A stretch of 64,000 nucleotides of DNA, from assembly GCA_000993205.1 (NCBI GenBank), contig LBVU01000003.1:85820-149819 (forward strand). Reading direction: 5' to 3'. Below the pieces are notes generated by a model. It was not told the DNA's origin, did not search any database, and saw nothing but the letters and a program-made list of their open reading frames with translations. Shown in pieces: positions 3,403 through 61,912 of the stretch. The stretch's first letter is position 1; each line of letters opens with the position of its first letter. A program made the translations under genes and the position numbers. This DNA is from Candidatus Woesebacteria bacterium GW2011_GWB1_39_10 (GTDB lineage Bacteria > Patescibacteriota > Microgenomatia > UBA8517).

Positions 3403-5051
3403 ACTTCTACAACAACAGGAAGAATCATCGGGCGACGGCCTGTTTTTTGGGCAAAATATCTTTCCAGAAAGTCTATTGCAGTATTTCTGGCTAACGTTGA
3501 ATTAACCGATTTTTTCTTCTGAAGTTCGCGCGCCAGGTCGCGGGAAGCGTCGTCCAAAACTCTGCCGTATTTCTGTTCAAAAACAAAGCCACGGCTTATT
3601 ATTTCGGGCGGAGAAAGAAGGGTCCCGCGGTTTCTGTCAAAGTGGATAATGGTTATAACAATTCCTTCCTTGGAAAGTATATGCCGGTCCCTTAGCACAG
3701 TATTTCCCACGTCTCCAACCCCAAGTCCGTCAATTAAAACCTCTTTGACAGGAACTCTTCCCGCAATTCTTGCGTTCTGATTGTTATACTCCACAATTTG
3801 CCCGGGGGTAAGCTCCAGAACCTCTCTTTCCGACGCGCCCATCGATTGCGCGATAAGCCCGTATGCCCTCATGTGACGAATAGTTCCACCGATTGGGATG
3901 TAATATTTAGGTTTAACTAGCGCAAAAAGCATTTCAATATCTTTAATGCTTCCGTGTCCTGAGACATGAAGATCCTCCTGCATGTCGTAGTAATGTACAT
4001 CAATATCACTTTCGATAAATTTATCTACCAAAAAATTAATTCCACCGGCGCTTCCGGGTGGCCCCGGGTCTGCCGAAAAAATAACCATATCCCCTTTGTT
4101 TATCGTCAAAAAATCATGTTCACCTGTTGCCAACCGGTAAAGGGCGCTCCCGGACTGTCCGTAACAGCCGGATATAATATAGAGAACTTTATTCGGAGGA
4201 AGCTTAGCAGCCTGTTTTGAACGGATGACAACATCTTTGGGATAAAATATGTAACCTAATTGTCTTGCAATCTCTGCTTTCCTTTCAATTGATCGACCAA
4301 TCAACACTACTTTTCTTCCCAATTTTGCGGCGGCATTAATTGTCTGCTGCATCCTTGAAATGTTTGATGATATTGTTGTCAAATAAATTTTGCCCGTCGC
4401 CTCTCTTCCTGCTTGTTCAATTCTTCCCTCAATCGCCTTTTCGCTCTCGGTGTAACCCGGGGATGTTGCCCCCAACGAATCCGATGCTAAAGCAAGCGCT
4501 CCACCAGAAGCCAATGTTGCCACTTTTGCTACGTCGAATGGACGCCCGTCTACCGGGGTCCAGTCAAATTTATAATCTGGAACATGGAAAAGTTTCCCTT
4601 CCGGGGAATCAATGCAAAAACCAACCCCGTCTGGAACTGAATGGGCAACCCTAAACGGGGTTACTTTAAATACTCCGAGAGTCAGAACGTCATGATCCGG
4701 ATCAAAAACCTTAACATTTTTGGTATCCATCCCGGAATCTATTAATTTTTCTTGAATAAAACCGGCAACTAATTTGGTCGCGTAAACTGGGGTGTTGACC
4801 TCTTTAAGAAGAAATGGAATTGCCCCCAGGTGATCTTCGTGTCCATGAGAAATAAGAACCCCGCGAAGTTTATGTTTATTTTGAACTACGTAAGTAAAAT
4901 CGGGAATAACAAGATCCACACCAAACATTTCGCTATCGGGAAAGCCCACGCCGCAATCAACAACAATCATGTCGTTTCCGTATTCGTAAACGTAAAGATT
5001 TTCCGTTACGCCGGTAGTTCCCGAGAGGGCAATGAATTTGAGGGAGTTCAT
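3399..5051 (-). CDS. rnj: Ribonuclease J (metallo-beta-lactamase / beta-CASP)
   Basis: 550 aa. 'VVDCGVGFP...ISHGHEDHLGAIPFLL' HxHxDH motif, beta-CASP region and a C-terminal domain. Confidence 0.9.
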   Translation of the reverse strand: MNSLKFIALSGTTGVTENLYVYEYGNDMIVVDCGVGFPDSEMFGVDLVIPDFTYVVQNKHKLRGVLISHGHEDHLGAIPFLLKEVNTPVYATKLVAGFIQEKLIDSGMDTKNVKVFDPDHDVLTLGVFKVTPFRVAHSVPDGVGFCIDSPEGKLFHVPDYKFDWTPVDGRPFDVAKVATLASGGALALASDSLGATSPGYTESEKAIEGRIEQAGREATGKIYLTTISSNISRMQQTINAAAKLGRKVVLIGRSIERKAEIARQLGYIFYPKDVVIRSKQAAKLPPNKVLYIISGCYGQSGSALYRLATGEHDFLTINKGDMVIFSADPGPPGSAGGINFLVDKFIESDIDVHYYDMQEDLHVSGHGSIKDIEMLFALVKPKYYIPIGGTIRHMRAYGLIAQSMGASEREVLELTPGQIVEYNNQNARIAGRVPVKEVLIDGLGVGDVGNTVLRDRHILSKEGIVITIIHFDRNRGTLLSPPEIISRGFVFEQKYGRVLDDASRDLARELQKKKSVNSTLARNTAIDFLERYFAQKTGRRPMILPVVVEV

Positions 5052-53901: not shown

Positions 53902-55271
53902 TTTTCTTCCGCCACAACTTTTACTTGAGTTAGATCGTAAAAACCAAATTTACCATGTTCTCTGCCGATTCCGGATTCTTTAAATCCTCCAAAAGGACTG
54001 CTTGGCTGTAAATATCCGGCATTATTGGTTTGAACCATACCCGTTTTTAATTCTGCAGCAACCCTTTCTGCCTTTTCTCTGTCTTCCGTAAAAATATAAC
54101 CTCCCAAACCATATTTTGTGTCATTCGCAAGATCGATGGCTTCTTTTTCAGTTTTAAAAGTTACTATTGGTAGAACCGGGCCAAACACTTCCTCGCACCA
54201 TACTCTCATATTTGGATTTATATTTGTTAAAACTGTTGGTTTGTAAAAATAGCCTCCATTTAAATTTAATTTCTCGCCGCCGACTTCGACTTTGGCTCCT
54301 TTTTGGACGGCGTCCTCAACCTGTTCTTCTAAAGTAATAAGTTGTTTCTCGGAGACCAATGGGCCGATCTCGGTTTTGTCATCAAGCGGGTCGCCTACTT
54401 TAGTATTACCTATTTTTTCAACAAGCTTATTTAGAACCTCGTCAAATTTATTTTCATGTACGATTAAGCGTTTCAGCCCGTCACAAACCTGGCCGGAATA
54501 TAAAAATCTGTTTCCAAAAAATGAATCTATCGTCCGTTCAATATCCGCGTCTTCAAAAATAACTCCGGGGGCCGATCCACCCAACTCCAAAAATATTTTT
54601 ATAAATTTTTCAGCGGCAACTTTGTATAAATATTTACCGATTGAGGTACTTCCCGTAAAACAAATTAAATCGATATCACCATTCACTAAAATATTACCAA
54701 CTTCACCGTCACCATAAATTTCTGAAAACACTCCATCTGGTAACCCTGATAAGTTAATTATCTCTTCAATCAATCTCCCGCTTAGGGGCACTTCTTCAGA
54801 GGTTTTATAAACGACCACATTTCCAGAAACCAACGATTGAGCAACCGACCAAACAAAATTTGAGGTTGTGAAGTTCCACGGTGTTATGTTTGCAGAAACT
54901 CCAATTGGTTCCCTGAATGCTACATGTTTCGTTTTATCGTCTTCATATACAACCTCCGGAGATAAATATTCTTTTGCATTATCAATATACCAACTAAAAT
55001 AATGCATAGAATCGTCCACGTCACTCCTGCTCATGGTGATCGGCATACCCATTTCTTTAGATGAAATTTGGGCAAGTTCTTCTTTGTGTTCTAAGAAATT
55101 TTCTACAACTTTTCGTAAATATTCGTTTCTTCCGGAAATTCCCAACTTATTCCAGCTTTCTTGGGCTTTTCTGGCTTTGGCGATCTTTTCATTGATTTCT
55201 TTCTCAGAAGAAATATCCACCTCTCCAAGAAGGTTGCCGTTCGACGGATTGGTTGATTTTAGTGTTGCCAT
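53898..55271 (-). CDS. NAD(P)-dependent aldehyde dehydrogenase
   Basis: 'LELGGSAPGVIFEDAD...FLYSGQVCDGLKRLIV' (ELGG and catalytic-Cys contexts). 457 aa. Confidence 0.85.
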   Translation of the reverse strand: MATLKSTNPSNGNLLGEVDISSEKEINEKIAKARKAQESWNKLGISGRNEYLRKVVENFLEHKEELAQISSKEMGMPITMSRSDVDDSMHYFSWYIDNAKEYLSPEVVYEDDKTKHVAFREPIGVSANITPWNFTTSNFVWSVAQSLVSGNVVVYKTSEEVPLSGRLIEEIINLSGLPDGVFSEIYGDGEVGNILVNGDIDLICFTGSTSIGKYLYKVAAEKFIKIFLELGGSAPGVIFEDADIERTIDSFFGNRFLYSGQVCDGLKRLIVHENKFDEVLNKLVEKIGNTKVGDPLDDKTEIGPLVSEKQLITLEEQVEDAVQKGAKVEVGGEKLNLNGGYFYKPTVLTNINPNMRVWCEEVFGPVLPIVTFKTEKEAIDLANDTKYGLGGYIFTEDREKAERVAAELKTGMVQTNNAGYLQPSSPFGGFKESGIGREHGKFGFYDLTQVKVVAEEK

Positions 55272-55276
55272 TGAAG

Positions 55277-56209
55277 TTATTCTAACCGACCCTCCTCTTT
55301 TTTGCCATCTCCCAATCTTTGAGTGCTGCTGATCTTTTGTCCCAACTGGTTGAACGAGGAAAACACATTACCCATCATGTTATAAGCGTTATTCAAATGT
55401 TTTTGTAACGTACTTAGGTTTTCTTCGACCTTTCCATAATCTGTCTGAATCGCCCGCAATATTCTAAAAACTTCTTTGGATTTTGCTTCCAAATCTTTCC
55501 CCTCAAAAGAAAGAAGTAGAACTTGAAGATGGGCATATAAAGTGTTTGGAGACACCGGATAAACTCTCAGTCTGCGCGCAAAAGTGGAAAGTTCGGGAAT
55601 GTTTACCGCCTCGTAATAAACCGCCTCTGACGGAATATACATCAAGGCAAAATCCATCGTTCCCTCATCCGGTAAAATGTATTTTCTTGAAATATCCTCT
55701 ATGTGTGTCTTGACGTCGTTAATAAACTGTTTTCTTGCCGAGTCCCGAGCAGCTTCCGTTTGGGCTTTATGCATCAAATTAAAGTTTTCCATTGGAAACT
55801 TGGAGTCAATACACAAAAGCCCCGCGTCAGTTTTAAGAACCGCATCCACTTTTACTCCGGATTTGAAAGGATATTGGAGATGAAATGCGTTTTTGGGAAA
55901 AGTCTGGCCTATCATTTCTTTTAAAACCTCCTCCCCCAACCCCCCGCGAAGTTTTGGTGATTGCAGAAAATCCTGAAGAGTTCTAATTCCTTTTCCGATC
56001 TCACTCATCTCCCCCAAACTTCTTTGAAGCGCGCTCATTACGTGTGCCGCGTTATCCAAACGGTCGTTAAAAGATTTGCTTTGACCTTCCATCCTTTGGT
56101 GGGTAGACTTTAACCATTCAACAATTTCCCCGGATGGTTTTTTGTTTATGTTCAAATAGATGAGAATAACGAGAGCTATTGATATTATAATGAGTAATGA
56201 GAGTTCCAC
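55277..56209 (-). CDS. rmuC: DNA recombination protein RmuC
   Basis: N-terminal TM, coiled-coil and RmuC nuclease-like C-terminal pattern ('LMYIPSEAVYYEAV'). Confidence 0.7.
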   Translation of the reverse strand: MELSLLIIISIALVILIYLNINKKPSGEIVEWLKSTHQRMEGQSKSFNDRLDNAAHVMSALQRSLGEMSEIGKGIRTLQDFLQSPKLRGGLGEEVLKEMIGQTFPKNAFHLQYPFKSGVKVDAVLKTDAGLLCIDSKFPMENFNLMHKAQTEAARDSARKQFINDVKTHIEDISRKYILPDEGTMDFALMYIPSEAVYYEAVNIPELSTFARRLRVYPVSPNTLYAHLQVLLLSFEGKDLEAKSKEVFRILRAIQTDYGKVEENLSTLQKHLNNAYNMMGNVFSSFNQLGQKISSTQRLGDGKKEEGRLE

Positions 56210-56547
56210 GACATAAGTATATCAGGCGTACAGAGCAAAAACTAAAGCGTAAAAATTTCTTACCCACTCTTTTGGTCACAATTTTATTGTGGCTGGCGAC
56301 TTTCGGAATTGTTTACTTCGTGGATCCCGGAACTTTTGGCGCAATACCTCTTTTTTTTATTGTAGTTTTTTTGAGTTTCCTTTTTACTTTTTCACTCTTG
56401 TTTGCCGATAGCCGGCGTGGAATGGTTGCAACCATCGCATCAACCCTATTCCTTACACTTCTCTACTTGGGTGTTGGAAATATATTAAATTTAATTTTGA
56501 TTGTTGCAATTGCAGTTAGTATCGAGATATATTTCAGCTTGAAGTGA
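56197..56547 (+). CDS. Small hydrophobic membrane protein
   Basis: 116 aa with 3 TM segments. Confidence 0.4.
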   Translation: MRVPRHKYIRRTEQKLKRKNFLPTLLVTILLWLATFGIVYFVDPGTFGAIPLFFIVVFLSFLFTFSLLFADSRRGMVATIASTLFLTLLYLGVGNILNLILIVAIAVSIEIYFSLK

Positions 56548-56873
56548 ATCCATCTCTTAAAAAACAATTGCTCCGAACTTTCTCTCAGATGATTGATGAC
56601 CTTAAGGACCCAAAAGAGATCGAAATCTTTTTGACAGACTTTTTTGACGAGGCCGAGCTTGAAAAATATGTTAAAAGAATATCTATTGCCTATTGGTTAA
56701 AAAAGGGACGGGACTCGGAAAATATCAAAAGGAACTTATTGGCTACTTCAAAAGAGATAACAGAGGCCGAAAAATCTTTAAAAAAAGGGGGGGTCAGGCT
56801 CGCCCTCAAAAAAATCGAGGCAGAAGAGTGGGCGAATGTGTGGAGTGAAAAAATCAAGAAATTTAAAAAATAG
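56544..56873 (+). CDS. TrpR/YerC-YecD-like DNA-binding protein (second paralog)
   Basis: 'IEIFLTDFFDEAELEKYVKRISIAYWLKKGRDSENIKRNLLATSKEI' follows the same pattern as 24825..25274. Confidence 0.55.
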   Translation: MNPSLKKQLLRTFSQMIDDLKDPKEIEIFLTDFFDEAELEKYVKRISIAYWLKKGRDSENIKRNLLATSKEITEAEKSLKKGGVRLALKKIEAEEWANVWSEKIKKFKK

Positions 56874-56935
56874 TAGCTTCAAATACCCTTCACGAATGAT
56901 ATTTCCAATCTAGATTGTAGTGCTCACATTATTAG

Positions 56936-56964
56936 TTGACATATTGTTATTGTTGATTAATAAT
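56936..56964 (+). promoter_or_regulatory. Sigma70-like promoter (TTGACA-N17-AATAAT) giving a near-leaderless LAGLIDADG transcript
   Basis: TTGACA at 56936-56941 and AATAAT at 56959-56964. The ATG at 56971 is 7 nt downstream of the -10 element. Confidence 0.45.
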
Positions 56965-56970
56965 TTATTA

Positions 56971-57993
56971 ATGCCTCACACCAGAAAAAATATTAATTGT
57001 AACAAGTTGAAGGATCTGTATATCAAAAGAAAACTCTCACTTTTAAAAGTTGGTAAAATTCTAGGCTATTCTTCAAGAACAATTGAGATCAAAACCAAAG
57101 AATGTAAAATACCCATTAGAAAACCAGGTTCGATCCCTCCAAAGATAAGCGATAAAACATTAAAACATTTATATATTCAAAAAAAAATGTCTAGCAGAAA
57201 AATAGCAAAGATATATAAATGTGCCTATTCATATATTGACACTCGAATAAAATCAATGAATATCCCCAGAAGGAATCTTTCTATTGCTCATATTGTCTCG
57301 AAAAGAATTAACTTTTCTGGTGACGTAAATGAAAAAGCATATCTAATTGGTTTTAGAATTGGAGATCTAAGAGTTAGAAAGATGTACAAAAATAGCGAGT
57401 CTATTTTAGTTGACTGCGGTTCAACCAAGCTAGAACAAATAAGACTAATAAAAAGATTGTTTGAAAAATACGGAAGAATCTGGATTAGCAGACCTAAAAC
57501 TAATGGGAAAACTCAAATTGAGATTGGCGTCAATGAATCGTTTTCTTTTTTACTTCCTAAATACCAAATATTCCCTCATTGGACAATGAAAATGAAAAAA
57601 ACATTCTTGAACATTCTTGCTGGCTTTGTCGATGCTGAGGGAAGCTTTTTCATATCTAACAACAAAAAATCTGCTACTTTTTCACTCGGTAATTATAACA
57701 AATCGATTCTCGAACAAACAAAACAAAAGCTATATGGATACAATTTTCACGCAAACCTATTTCAAGGTGTTAAAAAAGGATATACAGGAAAAGACGGTTA
57801 TTCACACAGACAGGATTATTGGATATTGTCTATTTCAAGGAAAAAAGATTTACAATTATTTATCGAAACAATATCTTCTTATTTGAAACACAAGGACAGA
57901 ATAAAACAAACACAAAAAGTACTGGAAAATATAGAAATGAGAAACAAAAAACATGGCTTTATAGGCATGCAACGTGATAAACTTCAACCATGA
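56971..57993 (+). CDS. Free-standing LAGLIDADG homing endonuclease (two-motif, single-chain) with duplicated N-terminal HTH-like segments
   Basis: 'KAYLIGFRIGDLRVRK' and 'FLNILAGFVDAEGSFFIS' LAGLIDADG motifs. Stop overlaps the metG ATG (ATGA). The ORF extension to 56920 runs through its own promoter and is likely spurious. Confidence 0.8.
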   Translation: MPHTRKNINCNKLKDLYIKRKLSLLKVGKILGYSSRTIEIKTKECKIPIRKPGSIPPKISDKTLKHLYIQKKMSSRKIAKIYKCAYSYIDTRIKSMNIPRRNLSIAHIVSKRINFSGDVNEKAYLIGFRIGDLRVRKMYKNSESILVDCGSTKLEQIRLIKRLFEKYGRIWISRPKTNGKTQIEIGVNESFSFLLPKYQIFPHWTMKMKKTFLNILAGFVDAEGSFFISNNKKSATFSLGNYNKSILEQTKQKLYGYNFHANLFQGVKKGYTGKDGYSHRQDYWILSISRKKDLQLFIETISSYLKHKDRIKQTQKVLENIEMRNKKHGFIGMQRDKLQP

Positions 57994-59420
57994 TTGATAA
58001 AAAGTCTGTTTATATAACAACAACGCTCCCATATGTGAACTCTGACCCACATCTGGGATTTGCGCTGGAAATAACGCAAGCCGATACTGTTGCCAGATTT
58101 AAAAGGCAAGAAGGATTTGATGTCTTTTTTAATTTTGGCACCGACGAACATGGTTTAAAAATATACCAAAAAGCTCTCGAACAAGGAAAAGAAACTCAAA
58201 CATACGTTGATGAGTATGCTGAAAAATTTGATGCCCTTAAGAAAGCTTTAAACTTAAGCTATAACAATTTTATAAGAACCACAGACCCCCACCACATAAT
58301 GGCGGCTCGGGGGTTTTGGGAAAGATGTGATAAAAATGGAGATATTTACAAGAAAAATTATAAACAAAAATATTGTGTAGGTTGCGAGCTAGAGAAAACA
58401 GATTCTGAACTTATTGAAAACAAGTGTCCTCTGCATCCGAATCGGGATATAGAAATTATTGAAGAAGAAAACTACTTTTTTAAATTTAGTAAATATCAAC
58501 AGCCACTCCTAGAATTCTACAAAAAAAATCCAGATTTTGTAGTTCCAGATGGGAAATTTAGTGAGATAAGATCATTTGTTGAAGGTGGCCTTCAAGATTT
58601 TTCCATTTCTAGAATTAAGAACAAAATGCCTTGGGGAATTCCTGTTCCAAACGACCCAGAACATGTCATGTTCGTGTGGTTCGATGCTTTAGTAAATTAT
58701 GTATCTGCAATCGGATGGCCCGATGACATGAAGAAGTTTGATAAGTGGTGGCCCGTGGTTCAGTTTGCCGGAAAAGACAATTTAAGACAGCAAACTGCTA
58801 CATGGCAAGCAATGCTCATGAGCGCAGGAATTTCGAATTCAAAACAAATTTTTATACACGGATTTATTACAGTAAATGGTCAAAAAATTAGCAAAAGCCT
58901 AGGAAACACGATCAATCCAATAGATGTTGTAAAAAAATATGGGACTGACCCTGTTCGATACTATTTATTGTCTAAAATAAATCCATATGACGATTCAGAT
59001 TTTACTTTTGAAAAATTTGAAGATGTTTATAATGGTGACCTGGCAAACGGACTTGGAAATTTGGTTTCCAGATGCGCTAAGCTTTGCGAGAATTCCAGTT
59101 TCGATTTCCCGTATGATATATCGATATATCATATTCTTGATAAAAAAATTGAGGTATCTCTAAATGATTATAGATTTGACGAGGCGCTGAAAATAGTTTG
59201 GACCAAAGTCGCTGAAACAGATAAATATATCAACGAAAACGAACCATGGAAGTTGGAGGGAGACAAACTCAAGGGGGTCCTTAGCAGCTCAGTTGAATCC
59301 ATAAGACATATTGCATATAACTTGAAGTCATTCCTCCCTGAAACTGCAGAAAAAATTGAAGCTCAATTTAAGGGCCCAAAAATAAAATCCGACAGATCGT
59401 TATTCCCCCGTTTGCCATAG
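57990..59420 (+). CDS. metG: Methionyl-tRNA synthetase (short form) with an HLGF variant of the HIGH motif
   Basis: 'YITTTLPYVNSDPHLGFALE', 'KISKSLGN' (KMSKS), 'CVGCELE...CPLH' knuckle. Confidence 0.85.
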   Translation: MIDKKSVYITTTLPYVNSDPHLGFALEITQADTVARFKRQEGFDVFFNFGTDEHGLKIYQKALEQGKETQTYVDEYAEKFDALKKALNLSYNNFIRTTDPHHIMAARGFWERCDKNGDIYKKNYKQKYCVGCELEKTDSELIENKCPLHPNRDIEIIEEENYFFKFSKYQQPLLEFYKKNPDFVVPDGKFSEIRSFVEGGLQDFSISRIKNKMPWGIPVPNDPEHVMFVWFDALVNYVSAIGWPDDMKKFDKWWPVVQFAGKDNLRQQTATWQAMLMSAGISNSKQIFIHGFITVNGQKISKSLGNTINPIDVVKKYGTDPVRYYLLSKINPYDDSDFTFEKFEDVYNGDLANGLGNLVSRCAKLCENSSFDFPYDISIYHILDKKIEVSLNDYRFDEALKIVWTKVAETDKYINENEPWKLEGDKLKGVLSSSVESIRHIAYNLKSFLPETAEKIEAQFKGPKIKSDRSLFPRLP

Positions 59421-59453
59421 CTCTTTACGGTTTAAACCGTTAAACAATTTAAA

Positions 59454-60944
59454 ATGAGGAACTACATCATCAAACACGAAAAAGGTATCTTACGGGCCTT
59501 GGAAATTTTACCAGGGTTAGTCTCCTGGAACCTCATTCTCTTCCCCTATTGGGGAATTCTGGTTATCCCCGTTGTTGTTGCCTATTTCATACTTTTTTTC
59601 AATATTTACTGGTTTTATCAATCACTCCAAATTGCAATTTCCTCAATCGTCTCGCACCTTAAAATTCAGTCGGCTAAGATTTACGACTGGATGGGAGATG
59701 TTAGAGGATTCTCCGATTGGGAAAGAGTCAGACACATTGTAATTATTCCAACATACAACGAACCGATTCATATTTTGGAAAGAACCCTCAGGTCCCTCGC
59801 CGATCAGGAATTCCCAACTAAACACATAATTCCAGTAGTGGCTATGGAAGGAAAGGAAACACGCGAAGCGCGAAATGACAAATTTCAAATACTAAATAAT
59901 AAATTTGGGGAAAAATTTAGTCACTTATACATGACTGTCCACGAACTGGAAATGGGGGAAGTGACCGGAAAAGCTTCTAATGAGAGATTCGCAGCTGTCT
60001 GGATCAAAAAAAACTATATTGACTTAAATAAAATCGATATTAATTATGTAACAGTGACCAGTTGCGACGCGGACCATAAATTCCATCCTAAGCATTTCGC
60101 AAATTTAACTTACAAATTTCTGGACAATCCAAAAAGATATAAAACTTTTTGGCAACCGGCTGTTATGTTTTATAATAATATTTGGGAAATTCCCGCAATT
60201 ACACGAGTTCCAAATACTCTTATGACAATTTGGAATCTTTCACTCCTCCCCAGACACGACAGGCTTATTAACGCTCAGAATTACTCTCTTTCTTTTAAAC
60301 TTCTAGATTCTGTGGGCTATTGGGATCCGGATAAAATTCCGGAAGATTGGGGATTATTCTTTAAGGCGTTTTATAAGAGTGGCGGCGGGATCGAGGTGGA
60401 ACCTATTTATCTACCCCTAATGGCCGATGCTGCCCAATCTTCTTCATTTTGGAAAACTTTGCAAAATCAATATCAACAAATTCAAAGGTGGGCGTGGGGA
60501 GTAAGCGACGATCCTTGGATTATAAAAAGTTATTTGCTTGCTAGAGACGTTCCTTTTTGGGATAAAACCACCCGCCTGTTCCAAGTGATTTGGGCCCATT
60601 TCCTCTGGCCCGTTAACTGGTTTATCATCACAATAGGCTTAACACTGCCAACACTTCTAAATCCAGCCTTTGGTAGAACAGCACTGGGTTATACCATTCC
60701 CAAACTTTCCTCTTTTATTCTAACCGTTTCGTTGATTTTTCTGGTCGTTGTACTTGTAATCGACAACATCCAAAAACCGGTAAGACCTAAGGAGGTTTCT
60801 GTGTGGAAACAAATTCTCGCACCATTTGAATTTGTTTTAATGCCCATTGCCGGGTTTTTCTTTTCCGCTCTGCCCGGCCTCGATGCGCACACGAGGCTTA
60901 TGCTAGGCAAGTACATCGAGTACAGGGTGACAGAGAAAATGTAG
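59454..60944 (+). CDS. Processive GT2 membrane glycosyltransferase (cellulose/chitin/hyaluronan-synthase-like)
   Basis: 'TSCDADH' (DxD) and 'QQIQRWAWG' (QxxRW). N- and C-terminal TM segments. Confidence 0.8.
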   Translation: MRNYIIKHEKGILRALEILPGLVSWNLILFPYWGILVIPVVVAYFILFFNIYWFYQSLQIAISSIVSHLKIQSAKIYDWMGDVRGFSDWERVRHIVIIPTYNEPIHILERTLRSLADQEFPTKHIIPVVAMEGKETREARNDKFQILNNKFGEKFSHLYMTVHELEMGEVTGKASNERFAAVWIKKNYIDLNKIDINYVTVTSCDADHKFHPKHFANLTYKFLDNPKRYKTFWQPAVMFYNNIWEIPAITRVPNTLMTIWNLSLLPRHDRLINAQNYSLSFKLLDSVGYWDPDKIPEDWGLFFKAFYKSGGGIEVEPIYLPLMADAAQSSSFWKTLQNQYQQIQRWAWGVSDDPWIIKSYLLARDVPFWDKTTRLFQVIWAHFLWPVNWFIITIGLTLPTLLNPAFGRTALGYTIPKLSSFILTVSLIFLVVVLVIDNIQKPVRPKEVSVWKQILAPFEFVLMPIAGFFFSALPGLDAHTRLMLGKYIEYRVTEKM

Positions 60945-60967
60945 CCCCAATTTTTAATTCTAAATTC

Positions 60968-61912
60968 TTAATTATTAATTGATTTGTAATATTCAATCGT
61001 CTTTAGAAGGCCTTTGTCTACACTCACCACAGGTTTCCAGTTTAAAAATCTTTCGGTTTTGCTTATATCCGGCCGTCTTTGTTTTGGATCGTCCGGTGGA
61101 AGTTCTTTATTTATAATATCGGACGCAGAATCTGTCATTTCCCTGATCTTTTTGGCCAAATCATTCATTGAATATTCCTCCGGGTTTCCCAAATTAAAAA
61201 CTTCCCCGGTTGTTCCCTCAGTAAACATCACTTTTGTTAGACCCTCAACCAAATCGCTTACAAAACAAAAAGAGCGCGTTTGTGTTCCATCGCCATAAAT
61301 GGTGATCGGTTCATTTGTTAAGGCCGCATTGATAAAATTACTTACTACCCGTCCATCGTTTACCTGCATTCTGGGACCGTAGGTGTTAAAAATTCTTACA
61401 ACACTCGCATCTAAATTATATTTATGTAGATAAACGTATGTTGCCGATTCTGCAAATCTTTTACTCTCATCGTAACAAGAACGAGGACCAAAGGTGTTAA
61501 CGTTCCCCCAATATGTTTCTTTTTGAGGATGTTCCAGAGGGTCCCCGTAGACTTCTGACGTCGAAGCAATCAATATCTTGGCACTCATTTTTTTTGCCAA
61601 TTCCAACATATTAATTGTACCCATGGAATTGGTCAAAAGTGTTTCTTCTGGGTAATTTTGATAATCAACAGGAGACGCCGGGGAGGCCAAGTGAAATATA
61701 TAGCTAATATCTAAAAGCGAAGAACTAAGAGGTTTGGTAACGTCGGACTCTACAAATTCAAAGTTGGGGTTATCCAGAAGGTGTTCTATATTCTTTTTTG
61801 AACCAGTAAGAAAGTTATCCAGACAAATTACTTCATAATCTTTTCCGATAAGAAAATCGCAAAGGTGAGAACCAATAAACCCCGCCCCGCCTGTTACCAA
61901 GACTTTTTGCAT
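60968..61912 (-). CDS. UDP-glucuronate decarboxylase / UDP-xylose synthase (SDR)
   Basis: 'VLVTGGAGFIGSHL', 'YDESKRFAE' (YxxxK), 314 aa. Confidence 0.85.
   Translation of the reverse strand: MQKVLVTGGAGFIGSHLCDFLIGKDYEVICLDNFLTGSKKNIEHLLDNPNFEFVESDVTKPLSSSLLDISYIFHLASPASPVDYQNYPEETLLTNSMGTINMLELAKKMSAKILIASTSEVYGDPLEHPQKETYWGNVNTFGPRSCYDESKRFAESATYVYLHKYNLDASVVRIFNTYGPRMQVNDGRVVSNFINAALTNEPITIYGDGTQTRSFCFVSDLVEGLTKVMFTEGTTGEVFNLGNPEEYSMNDLAKKIREMTDSASDIINKELPPDDPKQRRPDISKTERFLNWKPVVSVDKGLLKTIEYYKSINN

Follow-up and report, generated by a model that had tools for sequence, protein, structure and literature searches.

The free-standing homing endonucleases of the T-even phages, SegA–G and MobA–E, spread by intronless homing, in which the repair of a double-strand break is accompanied by co-conversion of flanking markers (PMC2988022). 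In phage T4, promoters of gene 32 lie within segG, an arrangement that, it has been argued, helps the endonuclease to be retained (PMC2988022). In fungal mitochondria, mobile open reading frames (mORFs) encoding LAGLIDADG or GIY-YIG proteins are inserted together with a replacement gene end, at atp6 in Allomyces macrogynus and at atp6, atp9, cox2 and nad3 in Glomus; the native gene end persists as a diverging remnant, and its replacement derives from another lineage (PMC3630166). Here, we describe an open reading frame (ORF) for a LAGLIDADG protein that directly precedes metG, the gene for methionine–tRNA ligase (methionyl-tRNA synthetase, MetRS), in a 64-kb stretch of DNA from Candidatus Woesebacteria bacterium GW2011_GWB1_39_10, which we refer to as the window; the loci compared with it are labelled L001–L171. 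We think it probable that this ORF belongs to a mobile, metG-specific homing-endonuclease cassette in the Woesebacteria chromosome. The evidence from comparison of these sequences comprises the family and apparent fold of the protein, its catalytic residues, the putative promoters, strict linkage to metG, a patchy distribution with empty sites, remnants of interrupted genes, mosaic metG alleles and endonuclease-linked polymorphism at the presumed site.

The metG locus shares with the T-even systems a stand-alone endonuclease gene beside a conserved or essential gene that is presumably the target in genomes lacking the endonuclease. Both co-conversion and the embedded promoters appear to have counterparts here, in the form of a conversion breakpoint inside metG and a putative metG −10 element inside the 3′ end of the endonuclease gene. 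The phage enzymes, however, are of the GIY-YIG or HNH families, act between co-infecting genomes and are sited between intact genes, whereas the metG-linked enzyme is a LAGLIDADG protein encoded on a Patescibacteria chromosome, with a predicted leaderless promoter of its own, and its insertion is into a coding sequence, with duplication of the 5′ end. The mORFs resemble the metG cassette in that native metG 5′ ends have been left upstream while the functional gene begins with a 5′ part of a different allele lineage or MetRS type. The cassette is nevertheless their mirror image, replacing the 5′ end of its target, with promoter and start codon, rather than the 3′ end. Further differences are that the endonuclease is a separate cistron and not an in-frame fusion, that the chromosome is bacterial and the target an aminoacyl-tRNA synthetase gene, and that the cassette would supply the promoters.

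Among compact single-chain LAGLIDADG enzymes, I-DmoI, the endonuclease domain of PI-PfuI, I-Tsp061I and I-OnuI/I-LtrI share with the predicted protein a pseudo-dimeric fold of two domains in which both LAGLIDADG helices terminate in an acidic residue. These enzymes are encoded in introns or inteins, and their sequence identity to the metG-linked protein is just 12–21%. Compared with them, the metG-linked family has some 110 additional N-terminal residues, predicted to form two three-helix helix–turn–helix (HTH) modules. A precedent from the same phylum and nuclease superfamily is provided by the LAGLIDADG enzymes of the Candidate Phyla Radiation (CPR). According to PMC11270868, these are encoded within rRNA genes, by insertion sequences and introns that are removed from the transcript, and homing endonucleases are active in CPR genomes. 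A text search of that paper gave no mention of synthetases or of free-standing endonucleases, and on its account LAGLIDADG enzymes in the CPR are known only from insertions in rRNA genes. A text search of the searchable literature library for a homing endonuclease tied to metG or to any aminoacyl-tRNA synthetase in the CPR likewise returned nothing relevant.

Linkage to metG, empty sites and insertion scars

Two sets of relatives were analysed. The first consists of the 80 metG loci closest to that of the window among GTDB species representatives, collected with the window MetRS as query and encoding proteins 55–73% identical to it. An endonuclease-like gene is found in three of these loci, each time directly 5′ of metG, and the other 77 are empty. 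The empty loci keep the order RmuC, small membrane protein, TrpR-like protein, metG and GT2 glycosyltransferase, with merely 30–70 nt separating the TrpR-like gene from metG. Ordering the relatives by their flanking GT2 gene leaves genomes with and without the endonuclease interleaved. A preliminary description of the window had read the gene as a selfish element parked beside an essential gene, a reading that would be at odds with an ORF present in all relatives and no empty sites. Comparison of the loci reveals instead presence or absence at one fixed site within the same synteny, and the selfish-element reading survives. Mere parking does not, since the remnants and the breakpoint described below point to metG itself as the likely target.

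The second set comprises 80 metagenomic loci fetched with an alignment of the endonuclease family as query. Sufficient downstream sequence is available in 74, with endonuclease identities of 39–70%, and in every one of these informative loci the endonuclease gene stands directly upstream of metG, which begins −4 to +60 nt past the endonuclease match; the remaining six have 275 nt or less of contig left. Linkage is maintained even though MetRS identity in these loci ranges from 35% to 74% and the upstream genes differ. In three distant homologues, the endonuclease gene lies directly before metG although all other neighbours are different; the gene upstream of the cassette in L006, for example, encodes a TP_methylase, and metG is the sole constant neighbour among lineages. 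Pairwise identities of the endonucleases and their MetRS partners are correlated with a Spearman coefficient of 0.63, with clear discordances: the endonucleases of the window and L093 are 60% identical while their MetRS proteins are 42–44% identical, and for the window and L019 the corresponding values are 35% and 65%. Relatives of equal closeness differ in the endonuclease subfamily found at this site, and the two subfamilies are only 35% identical to each other (L001 versus L019 and L008).

Remnants of metG 5′ ends are found upstream of the cassette in L001, L168, L019, L156, L166, L164, L163, L091, L152, L155, L135, L157 and L107. Apart from the four of a different MetRS type described below, they are of the allele type that lacks the endonuclease (KKFY...NAEPH), whereas the functional 5′ ends behind the endonuclease gene are of the other type (KSVY...NSDPHL). 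The clearest case is L001, where a native metG promoter (TGTACAAT, 6 nt, ATG) and intact metG codons 1–19 (MNKKFYITTILPYVNAEPH) are followed by 8 nt and then by the −35 element of the cassette (TTGACT). In L168, the native spacer and promoter are of a different host type, resembling the empty site of L012, and a decayed remnant ends at the mutated His codon, again followed by 8 nt and TTGACT. Both remnants are of B type (see below) and end at the His codon of the HIGH signature in spite of their different native promoters. Remnants in L019 and L156, which carry endonucleases of other subfamilies, end at the same His codon, and those of L166, L164, L163 and L091 are shorter. Those of L152, L135, L157 and L107 come from a different MetRS type and run 3–25 codons beyond the HIGH motif; the stump is of the eukaryote/archaeal type in L152, the Escherichia coli type in L135 (LVTCALPYVNGPIHIGH) and the 'PIYYVNDVPHIGH' type in L157, and in these three loci the functional metG downstream of the endonuclease gene is of another type than the remnant. 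Remnants of this kind directly record insertion into resident metG genes.

A duplicated terminus of the gene-hybrid kind known from mORFs is thus seen in relatives; in the window itself, a functional metG 5′ end with endonuclease-linked markers is present and no remnant is detectable. At its left junction (56893–56935), the best local alignment to the metG 5′ ends of relatives scores 10, compared with a mean of 11.3 for shuffled sequences, 281 of 300 of which reach 10. A remnant at this position was accordingly rejected as not significant, the global alignment to the L001 junction being merely suggestive. L001, like L002 and L003, has an unassigned stretch of about 450 nt (5509–5950 in L001) that separates the TrpR-like gene from the native metG promoter and its remnant, and the first bases of this stretch in L001 (CACGAATGGCACC) resemble positions 56891–56905 of the window (CACGAATGATATT).

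Two allele lineages, distinguished at many linked positions, can be recognised among the nearest MetRS proteins. Lineage A, which is linked to the endonuclease, is marked by SDPHLGF, GLKIY, SAIGWP and KWWPVIQFAGK, and lineage B, which lacks it, by AEPHIGF, GQKIY, STLGWP and DFWPGIQVAGK. Mosaic proteins occur in which N-terminal parts of either lineage are joined to C-terminal thirds shared across lineages. To resolve this at the DNA level, L168 (endonuclease present, lineage A) was compared with L170 (endonuclease absent, lineage B), two loci from sister samples. Their identity is about 70% over metG nucleotides 1–840, rises to 95–99% over nucleotides 900–1200 and is 83–94% in the downstream genes. 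The change in identity marks a sharp recombination breakpoint at about 0.85 kb from the metG start, with the divergent segment on the endonuclease side, and this is the pattern predicted by homing with co-conversion. Nucleotides 900–1200 are more alike in this pair than are the downstream genes, a sign that this segment alone may have been exchanged a second time and more recently.

For the window, the same approach was uninformative as a search for a mosaic: identity to L021, L011, L009, L012, L001, L022 and L013 is about 70% throughout. The protein database contains no endonuclease-less relative of the window metG at 90% identity or above, the next best match after the identical entry being 80%. 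A sliding-window comparison of MetRS proteins from groups with and without the endonuclease gives a weak 5′ gradient and a lineage block at residues 211–270. Lineage A metG genes without an endonuclease also exist, as in L171 ('SDPHLGF'), and are consistent with either loss of the endonuclease or resistant empty sites. In L171, an unrelated ORF of 279 residues with no Pfam match on record (4064–4903, minus strand) takes the place of the endonuclease gene between the TrpR-like gene and metG.

The predicted endonuclease and its possible roles

The ORF matches LAGLIDADG_3 (PF14528) with 33.1 bits against a cut-off of 22.5 and LAGLIDADG_1 (PF00961) with 26.8 bits against a cut-off of 23.1, both matches being confined to the second domain at residues 214–310. 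No NCBIfam model matches the protein. In an alignment of 24 homologues of 42–71% identity, Gly131 and Asp132 of the first motif are invariant, as are Gly218, Phe219, Asp221, Ala222 and Gly224 of the second, where Glu223 is found in at least 90% of sequences and is replaced by Asp in one. A model built on the homologue alignment with AlphaFold2 (AF2) has a mean predicted local distance difference test (pLDDT) score of 88.9, and consists of the two N-terminal three-helix HTH modules followed by a two-domain LAGLIDADG core at approximately residues 118–330. In the model, the order of helices and strands at residues 119–328 fits the α-β-β-α-β-β-α fold twice over, as expected of a pseudo-dimer. Comparison of the model with the Protein Data Bank (PDB) using Foldseek returned PI-PfuI (3.5e-10), E-DreI, I-DmoI and I-OnuI as the top matches, and also I-Tsp061I, and a sequence profile search of the PDB with hmmsearch identified I-LtrI, I-OnuI and I-CreI at 7e-9 to 1e-5, with two matched stretches. 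Homologues match HTH_23, HTH_38 and HTH_7 in Pfam. The combined results support the assignment of the product as a free-standing, single-chain, two-motif LAGLIDADG homing endonuclease, for which cleavage activity would be expected from the conserved residues. In this, the two intact motifs and single-chain architecture read from the bare sequence are borne out, by conservation of both catalytic acidic residues, by the Pfam scores and by the two-domain fold model.

The ORF is, moreover, outside any intron or intein, as the preliminary description had held. It is separate from metG and has its own start, in contrast to intein- and group I intron-encoded endonucleases; metG continues as a single uninterrupted ORF with its own complete 5′ end downstream; no Rfam family, of group I or II introns or of any other structured RNA, matches positions 55800–59600 at E ≤ 1; and Pfam and NCBIfam scans detect no Hint or intein domain in either product.

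A protein search yielded 540 homologues of approximately 275–345 residues, all from Patescibacteria. For homologue pairs with unsaturated dS, dN/dS is 0.1–0.25, and the ORF is intact in 71 of the 74 homologous loci, the remaining three being cut by contig ends. In L100 (3875–4848), the match is split between two frames, with residues 1–94 in frame 2 and residues 108–335 in frame 1, as would result from a frameshifted pseudogene or an assembly error; this is the only two-frame case among the endonuclease loci examined.

Purifying selection and intact frames are also what would be seen if the protein were a domesticated regulator of metG or of its own promoter, inherited vertically with many losses, its nuclease activity absent or irrelevant. 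Domestication of LAGLIDADG scaffolds is known. WhiA combines a LAGLIDADG-type scaffold with a C-terminal HTH domain, has lost the catalytic residues and is conserved throughout the lineages that possess it. The metG-linked protein resembles WhiA in uniting such a scaffold with HTH elements in one bacterial protein, and its strict linkage to metG, its partial co-divergence with MetRS and the metG promoter apparently embedded in the 3′ end of its gene would suit a regulator. It differs from WhiA, however, in the N-terminal position of its HTH modules, in its conserved catalytic residues and in its patchy distribution, and the WhiA families of Pfam do not match it. A regulator also leaves unexplained the family-wide conservation of both catalytic acidic residues, the clean empty sites, the remnants of resident metG genes that differ in allele or type from the functional one, the occupation of one site in sister genomes by subfamilies of 35% identity, the sharp breakpoint in mosaic metG and a G+C content foreign to the flanks (about 0.30 over the ORF and 0.37–0.42 on both sides). 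Given the empty loci and the insertion scars, vertical inheritance of a domesticated regulator was dropped as the main explanation, and we regard it as unlikely. A regulatory side-function, for example autorepression through the HTH modules, could coexist with homing.

The presumed target site and the promoters

The endonuclease-linked substitutions cluster around the His codon of the HIGH signature, no farther than about 10 nt from it. Among HxGF-type alleles, the 75 that lack the endonuclease have HIGF in 62 cases, HVGF in seven and HLGF in three, whereas the 20 that carry it have HLGF in seven, HVGF in six, HIGF in four and HAGF in three. At the nucleotide level, the base that directly follows the His codon (position +3) reads A in 63/75 alleles without the endonuclease and 4/20 with it (Fisher p = 3e-7, uncorrected for phylogeny), and position −9 is G in 59/75 and 7/20, respectively. 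The codon three before His is mostly Ala (GCN) in the former group and Ser (TCN) in the latter. The sequence of the endonuclease-less site of the L011/L021/L170 type is ...CCTTATGTGAATGCNGAGCCNCAYATTGGCTTTGC..., and that of the window at 58029–58063, its sole match to the degenerate site pattern, is ...TCTGACCCACATCTGGGATTTGC. The independent junctions, the endonuclease-linked substitutions and the extreme conservation all point to the same 20–30 bp; on this basis, the balance of the evidence favours the HIGH-motif region of endonuclease-less metG as the recognition site. The linked substitutions would then protect carrier alleles from cleavage.

The HLGF form of the motif in the window had been singled out as odd. 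Its Leu, at the second place, is indeed linked to the endonuclease, but Phe at the fourth place is the norm for the clade: 74 of 77 endonuclease-less relatives have HxGF and one has HIGH, so that Phe stands for the second His of the class I signature. The HxGF-type MetRS proteins of the clade still pass the metG equivalog-domain model.

Free-standing phage endonucleases often cut away from their point of insertion (PMC2988022), and a genuine homing endonuclease might similarly recognise intergenic or promoter DNA upstream of metG, the features in the coding region merely hitch-hiking. Such a site would account for the window, L010, L093 and L095, where the cassette comes straight after the upstream gene and a remnant is absent. 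Upstream genes and spacers are, on the other hand, wholly different among lineages, leaving metG as the constant neighbour, the independent left junctions lie inside metG coding sequence at the His codon and the endonuclease-linked substitutions gather around that codon. We consider an upstream site very unlikely, and a target within metG more probable.

The cassette appears to bring its own promoter. The sequence TTGACA-17-AATAAT precedes the ATG at 56971 by 6 nt. It agrees with the consensus at 11 of 12 positions and is tied for the best of 22 promoter-like sites in positions 55000–61000. Because this weak-consensus scan is unenriched as a whole (17.3 sites expected), the claim rests on conservation: the geometry TTGAYN, 16–18 nt, nATAAT, 5–6 nt, ATG has been preserved in 12 of the 14 unique loci whose endonucleases are at least 55% identical. 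The sequence 5′ of the −35 element is unrelated between those loci while the promoter is kept, and the left border of the cassette is therefore placed at −35. ATG 56971, rather than the upstream GTG at 56920, is taken as the true start because homologues also begin with MPHT(R/K) there. Transcription is predicted to begin at or next to the A of this ATG and to give a leaderless mRNA, as had been proposed from the window sequence, and the conserved geometry supports this. Leaderless-type gene starts seem common in the genome. Over the 64 kb, TAnnnT is found 5–8 nt upstream of 18 of 51 first ATGs of long ORFs, compared with 8.9% of all ATG triplets, and a Shine–Dalgarno-like motif is found at 9 of the 51 long-ORF starts.

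A second, putative promoter element, TGnTA(A/C)A(C/A)T, is located 6 nt 5′ of the metG ATG, inside or just after the 3′ end of the endonuclease gene, in 13 of 16 loci with endonucleases at least 56% identical, and it is also present in loci with a different MetRS type; L008 and L019 carry TGGTACAAT in its place. Alleles without the endonuclease have TA(C/A/T)AAT at the same distance from the metG ATG. In L021, for example, a 19-nt spacer continues into the native metG −10 element (GCTGTACAAT, 6 nt, ATG), and L009 and L022 are similar. It is probable that metG has its own leaderless transcript from this promoter embedded in the endonuclease gene. The stop codon of the endonuclease gene (TGA, 57991–57993) does overlap the metG start (57990–57992) as ATGA, in agreement with the preliminary description, but this need not mean translational coupling, since the conserved extended −10 element suits a leaderless metG start; coupling was accordingly downgraded as the main route of metG expression.

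An embedded −10 element would also select against deletion of a dead gene, and this lends some plausibility to an inactive relic, a former endonuclease fixed and decaying and kept only for the metG promoter inside it. The decayed left junction of the window, without a remnant, and the frameshifted homologue in L100 could be cited in the same sense. If only the promoter were being retained, however, neither the N-terminal HTH modules nor the active site would be preserved, and it is the whole 340-residue ORF, not just its 3′ end, that is under purifying selection, with the catalytic residues invariant. The probability that the gene is such a relic is in our view very slight, and an active endonuclease is preferred.

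Two further features were observed upstream of endonuclease genes. The spacers between −35 and −10 in L093, L094, L095, L096, L097 and L005 share a loose TTCGG(G/T)T...T(T/C)GG pattern, whereas that of the window (56942–56958) contains a tandem ATTGTT ATTGTT; such patterns could be operators for autoregulation by the HTH modules. In another endonuclease subfamily (L101, L103, L104, L108, L110, L112, L126, L165 and L167), the 40 nt before the endonuclease ATG are different yet conserved, with TGTGATAAAAT, then a perfect hairpin AAAGGAGGTTnnnCCTCCTTT and then AAGATT-ATG. GGAGG is sequestered in the stem of this hairpin, which may serve translational control of the endonuclease.

A probable homing cassette at metG

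The arrangement that would best accommodate these observations is a cassette made up, in order, of a σ70-type promoter with a leaderless endonuclease start, the endonuclease gene with its two N-terminal HTH modules, the embedded extended −10 element and a replacement metG 5′ part. The enzyme would recognise some 20–40 bp of endonuclease-less metG around the PYVN(A)(E/D)PH-I-GF codons of the HIGH signature and cut there, and the break would be repaired from an allele carrying the endonuclease. Repair would copy the cassette together with a variable stretch of donor metG, about 0.85 kb in the one documented pair. If the left end of the break is retained, the old promoter and the first 19–21 resident metG codons would stay upstream as a dead remnant that then decays; in the window it would have decayed or been deleted. 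Carrier alleles would escape self-cleavage through substitutions next to His, with Leu, Val or Ala in place of Ile and Ser in place of Ala, and imprecise deletion of the endonuclease gene would be counter-selected because the promoter of the essential metG lies inside it. The parts of this scheme inferred from comparison of sequences are cleavage by the enzyme, its precise target, the sites of transcription initiation, the mechanism of immunity and the repair pathway.

Several observations weigh against this scheme. The scars and the conversion breakpoint come from homologous loci and not from the window, where no remnant is detectable and where metG is too diverged from the available relatives to reveal a mosaic. 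The target is deduced from junctions and polymorphisms, and the junction is not universal, as the remnants of L152, L135, L157 and L107 extend past the HIGH motif. HIGF is retained in four alleles with the endonuclease, and L009, L012 and L171, which lack it, carry the endonuclease-type SDPH(V/L)GF, so that the immunity substitutions, as read here, are neither necessary nor sufficient. The identities of the endonucleases and MetRS proteins are partly correlated. Near-universal intactness of the ORF and purifying selection would also fit a role beneficial to the host. Finally, when viral contigs were scanned with the family alignment, no relative of the endonuclease turned up, and a phage vector was set aside on this result.

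A more far-reaching proposal, which we put forward tentatively and with more doubt than confidence, is that the family is a vehicle for horizontal replacement of metG across Patescibacteria. By cutting the conserved HIGH codons, it would drive in part or all of a foreign metG, including one of another MetRS type, and leave a stump of the resident gene, the second HIGH position being subject to an arms race between cleavage and immunity. The findings that can be cited for this are the foreign-type stumps of L152, L135 and L157, the L168/L170 tract, the depletion of Ile in endonuclease-carrying alleles, and L093. The last of these keeps the synteny of the window (its RmuC is 69% identical) and has a related endonuclease, while its MetRS is of another type. 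Whole-gene replacement of metG looks possible in L093, and also in L099 and L090, with L152, L155, L135, L157 and L107 as further candidates.

The features of the locus are collected in Table 1. The promoter, ORF, motifs, overlap and HLGF variant listed in the preliminary description were all located in the sequence. On the plus strand, the genes follow one another in the order TrpR/YerC-like gene (56544–56873), a 97-nt gap, the endonuclease ORF, metG and a GT2 glycosyltransferase gene. The metG product matches tRNA-synt_1g of Pfam at 5.8e-94 and TIGR00398 with a score of 409.9 (cut-off 336.35), and its sequence is 100% identical to the database entry for the MetRS of Candidatus Woesebacteria bacterium GW2011_GWB1_39_10. 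A small membrane-protein gene (56197–56547) and the TrpR/YerC-like gene precede metG in relatives with and without the endonuclease alike, and are for this reason placed outside the cassette; the RmuC, membrane-protein and TrpR-like genes and metG are stably linked across Microgenomates. A search of the window for flanking direct or inverted repeats found nothing beyond short AT-rich chance matches.

Table 1. Coordinates of features at the metG locus of the window
Feature	Position	Strand	Evidence or remark
Residual native spacer 3′ of the TrpR-like gene, TAGCTTCAAATACCCTTCA	56874–56892	+	Host sequence left of the cassette; same 19 nt in the empty-site relative L021
Left junction, 43 unassigned nt	56893–56935	+	Equivalent place in L001, L168 and L019 holds clear metG remnants
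Putative endonuclease promoter	56936–56964	+	−35 TTGACA 56936–56941, 17-nt spacer, −10 AATAAT 56959–56964
Endonuclease gene, 340 residues, LAGLIDADG	56971–57993	+	ORF, Pfam, alignment, AF2 model, Foldseek, PDB profile search, dN/dS
Predicted HTH module 1, residues ~10–44	56998–57102	+	AF2 model
Predicted HTH module 2, residues ~61–95	57151–57255	+	AF2 model
LAGLIDADG motif 1, AYLIGFRIGDL, residues 123–133, catalytic Asp132	57337–57369	+	Alignment of 24 homologues
LAGLIDADG motif 2, LAGFVDAEGS, residues 216–225, catalytic Glu223	57616–57645	+	Alignment of 24 homologues
Extended −10 TGaTAAACT inside the endonuclease 3′ end, proposed leaderless metG promoter	57975–57983	+	Conserved spacing among subfamily
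metG, methionine–tRNA ligase, 476 residues, lineage A	57990–59420	+	Pfam, TIGR00398, allele markers
Codons for PYVNSDPHLGFA including the HIGH motif; presumed cleavage-resistant version of the homing site	58029–58063	+	His codon 58050–58052
HLGF variant of the HIGH motif	58050–58061	+	Raw sequence

The metG cassette would be a clear case on a bacterial chromosome of intronless homing by a LAGLIDADG enzyme. The hundreds of natural variants among its homologues, with their empty sites, scars and conversion tracts, form a data set for the cycle of endonuclease invasion, immunity and loss, and the paired leaderless promoters, that of the endonuclease itself and the one embedded for metG, would make a compact example of a selfish gene that is hard to delete. 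A meganuclease scaffold with two extra HTH modules, whose natural target sites would be readable from empty alleles, could be of interest for genome engineering. For the biology of the CPR, the metG alleles are direct evidence that lineages of ultra-small, uncultured Patescibacteria exchange homologous DNA. Homing of this kind would offer a concrete mechanism for the origin of mosaic and xenologous aminoacyl-tRNA synthetase genes, and pressure from a selfish element may shape the second position of HIGH, a signature of the class I synthetases.

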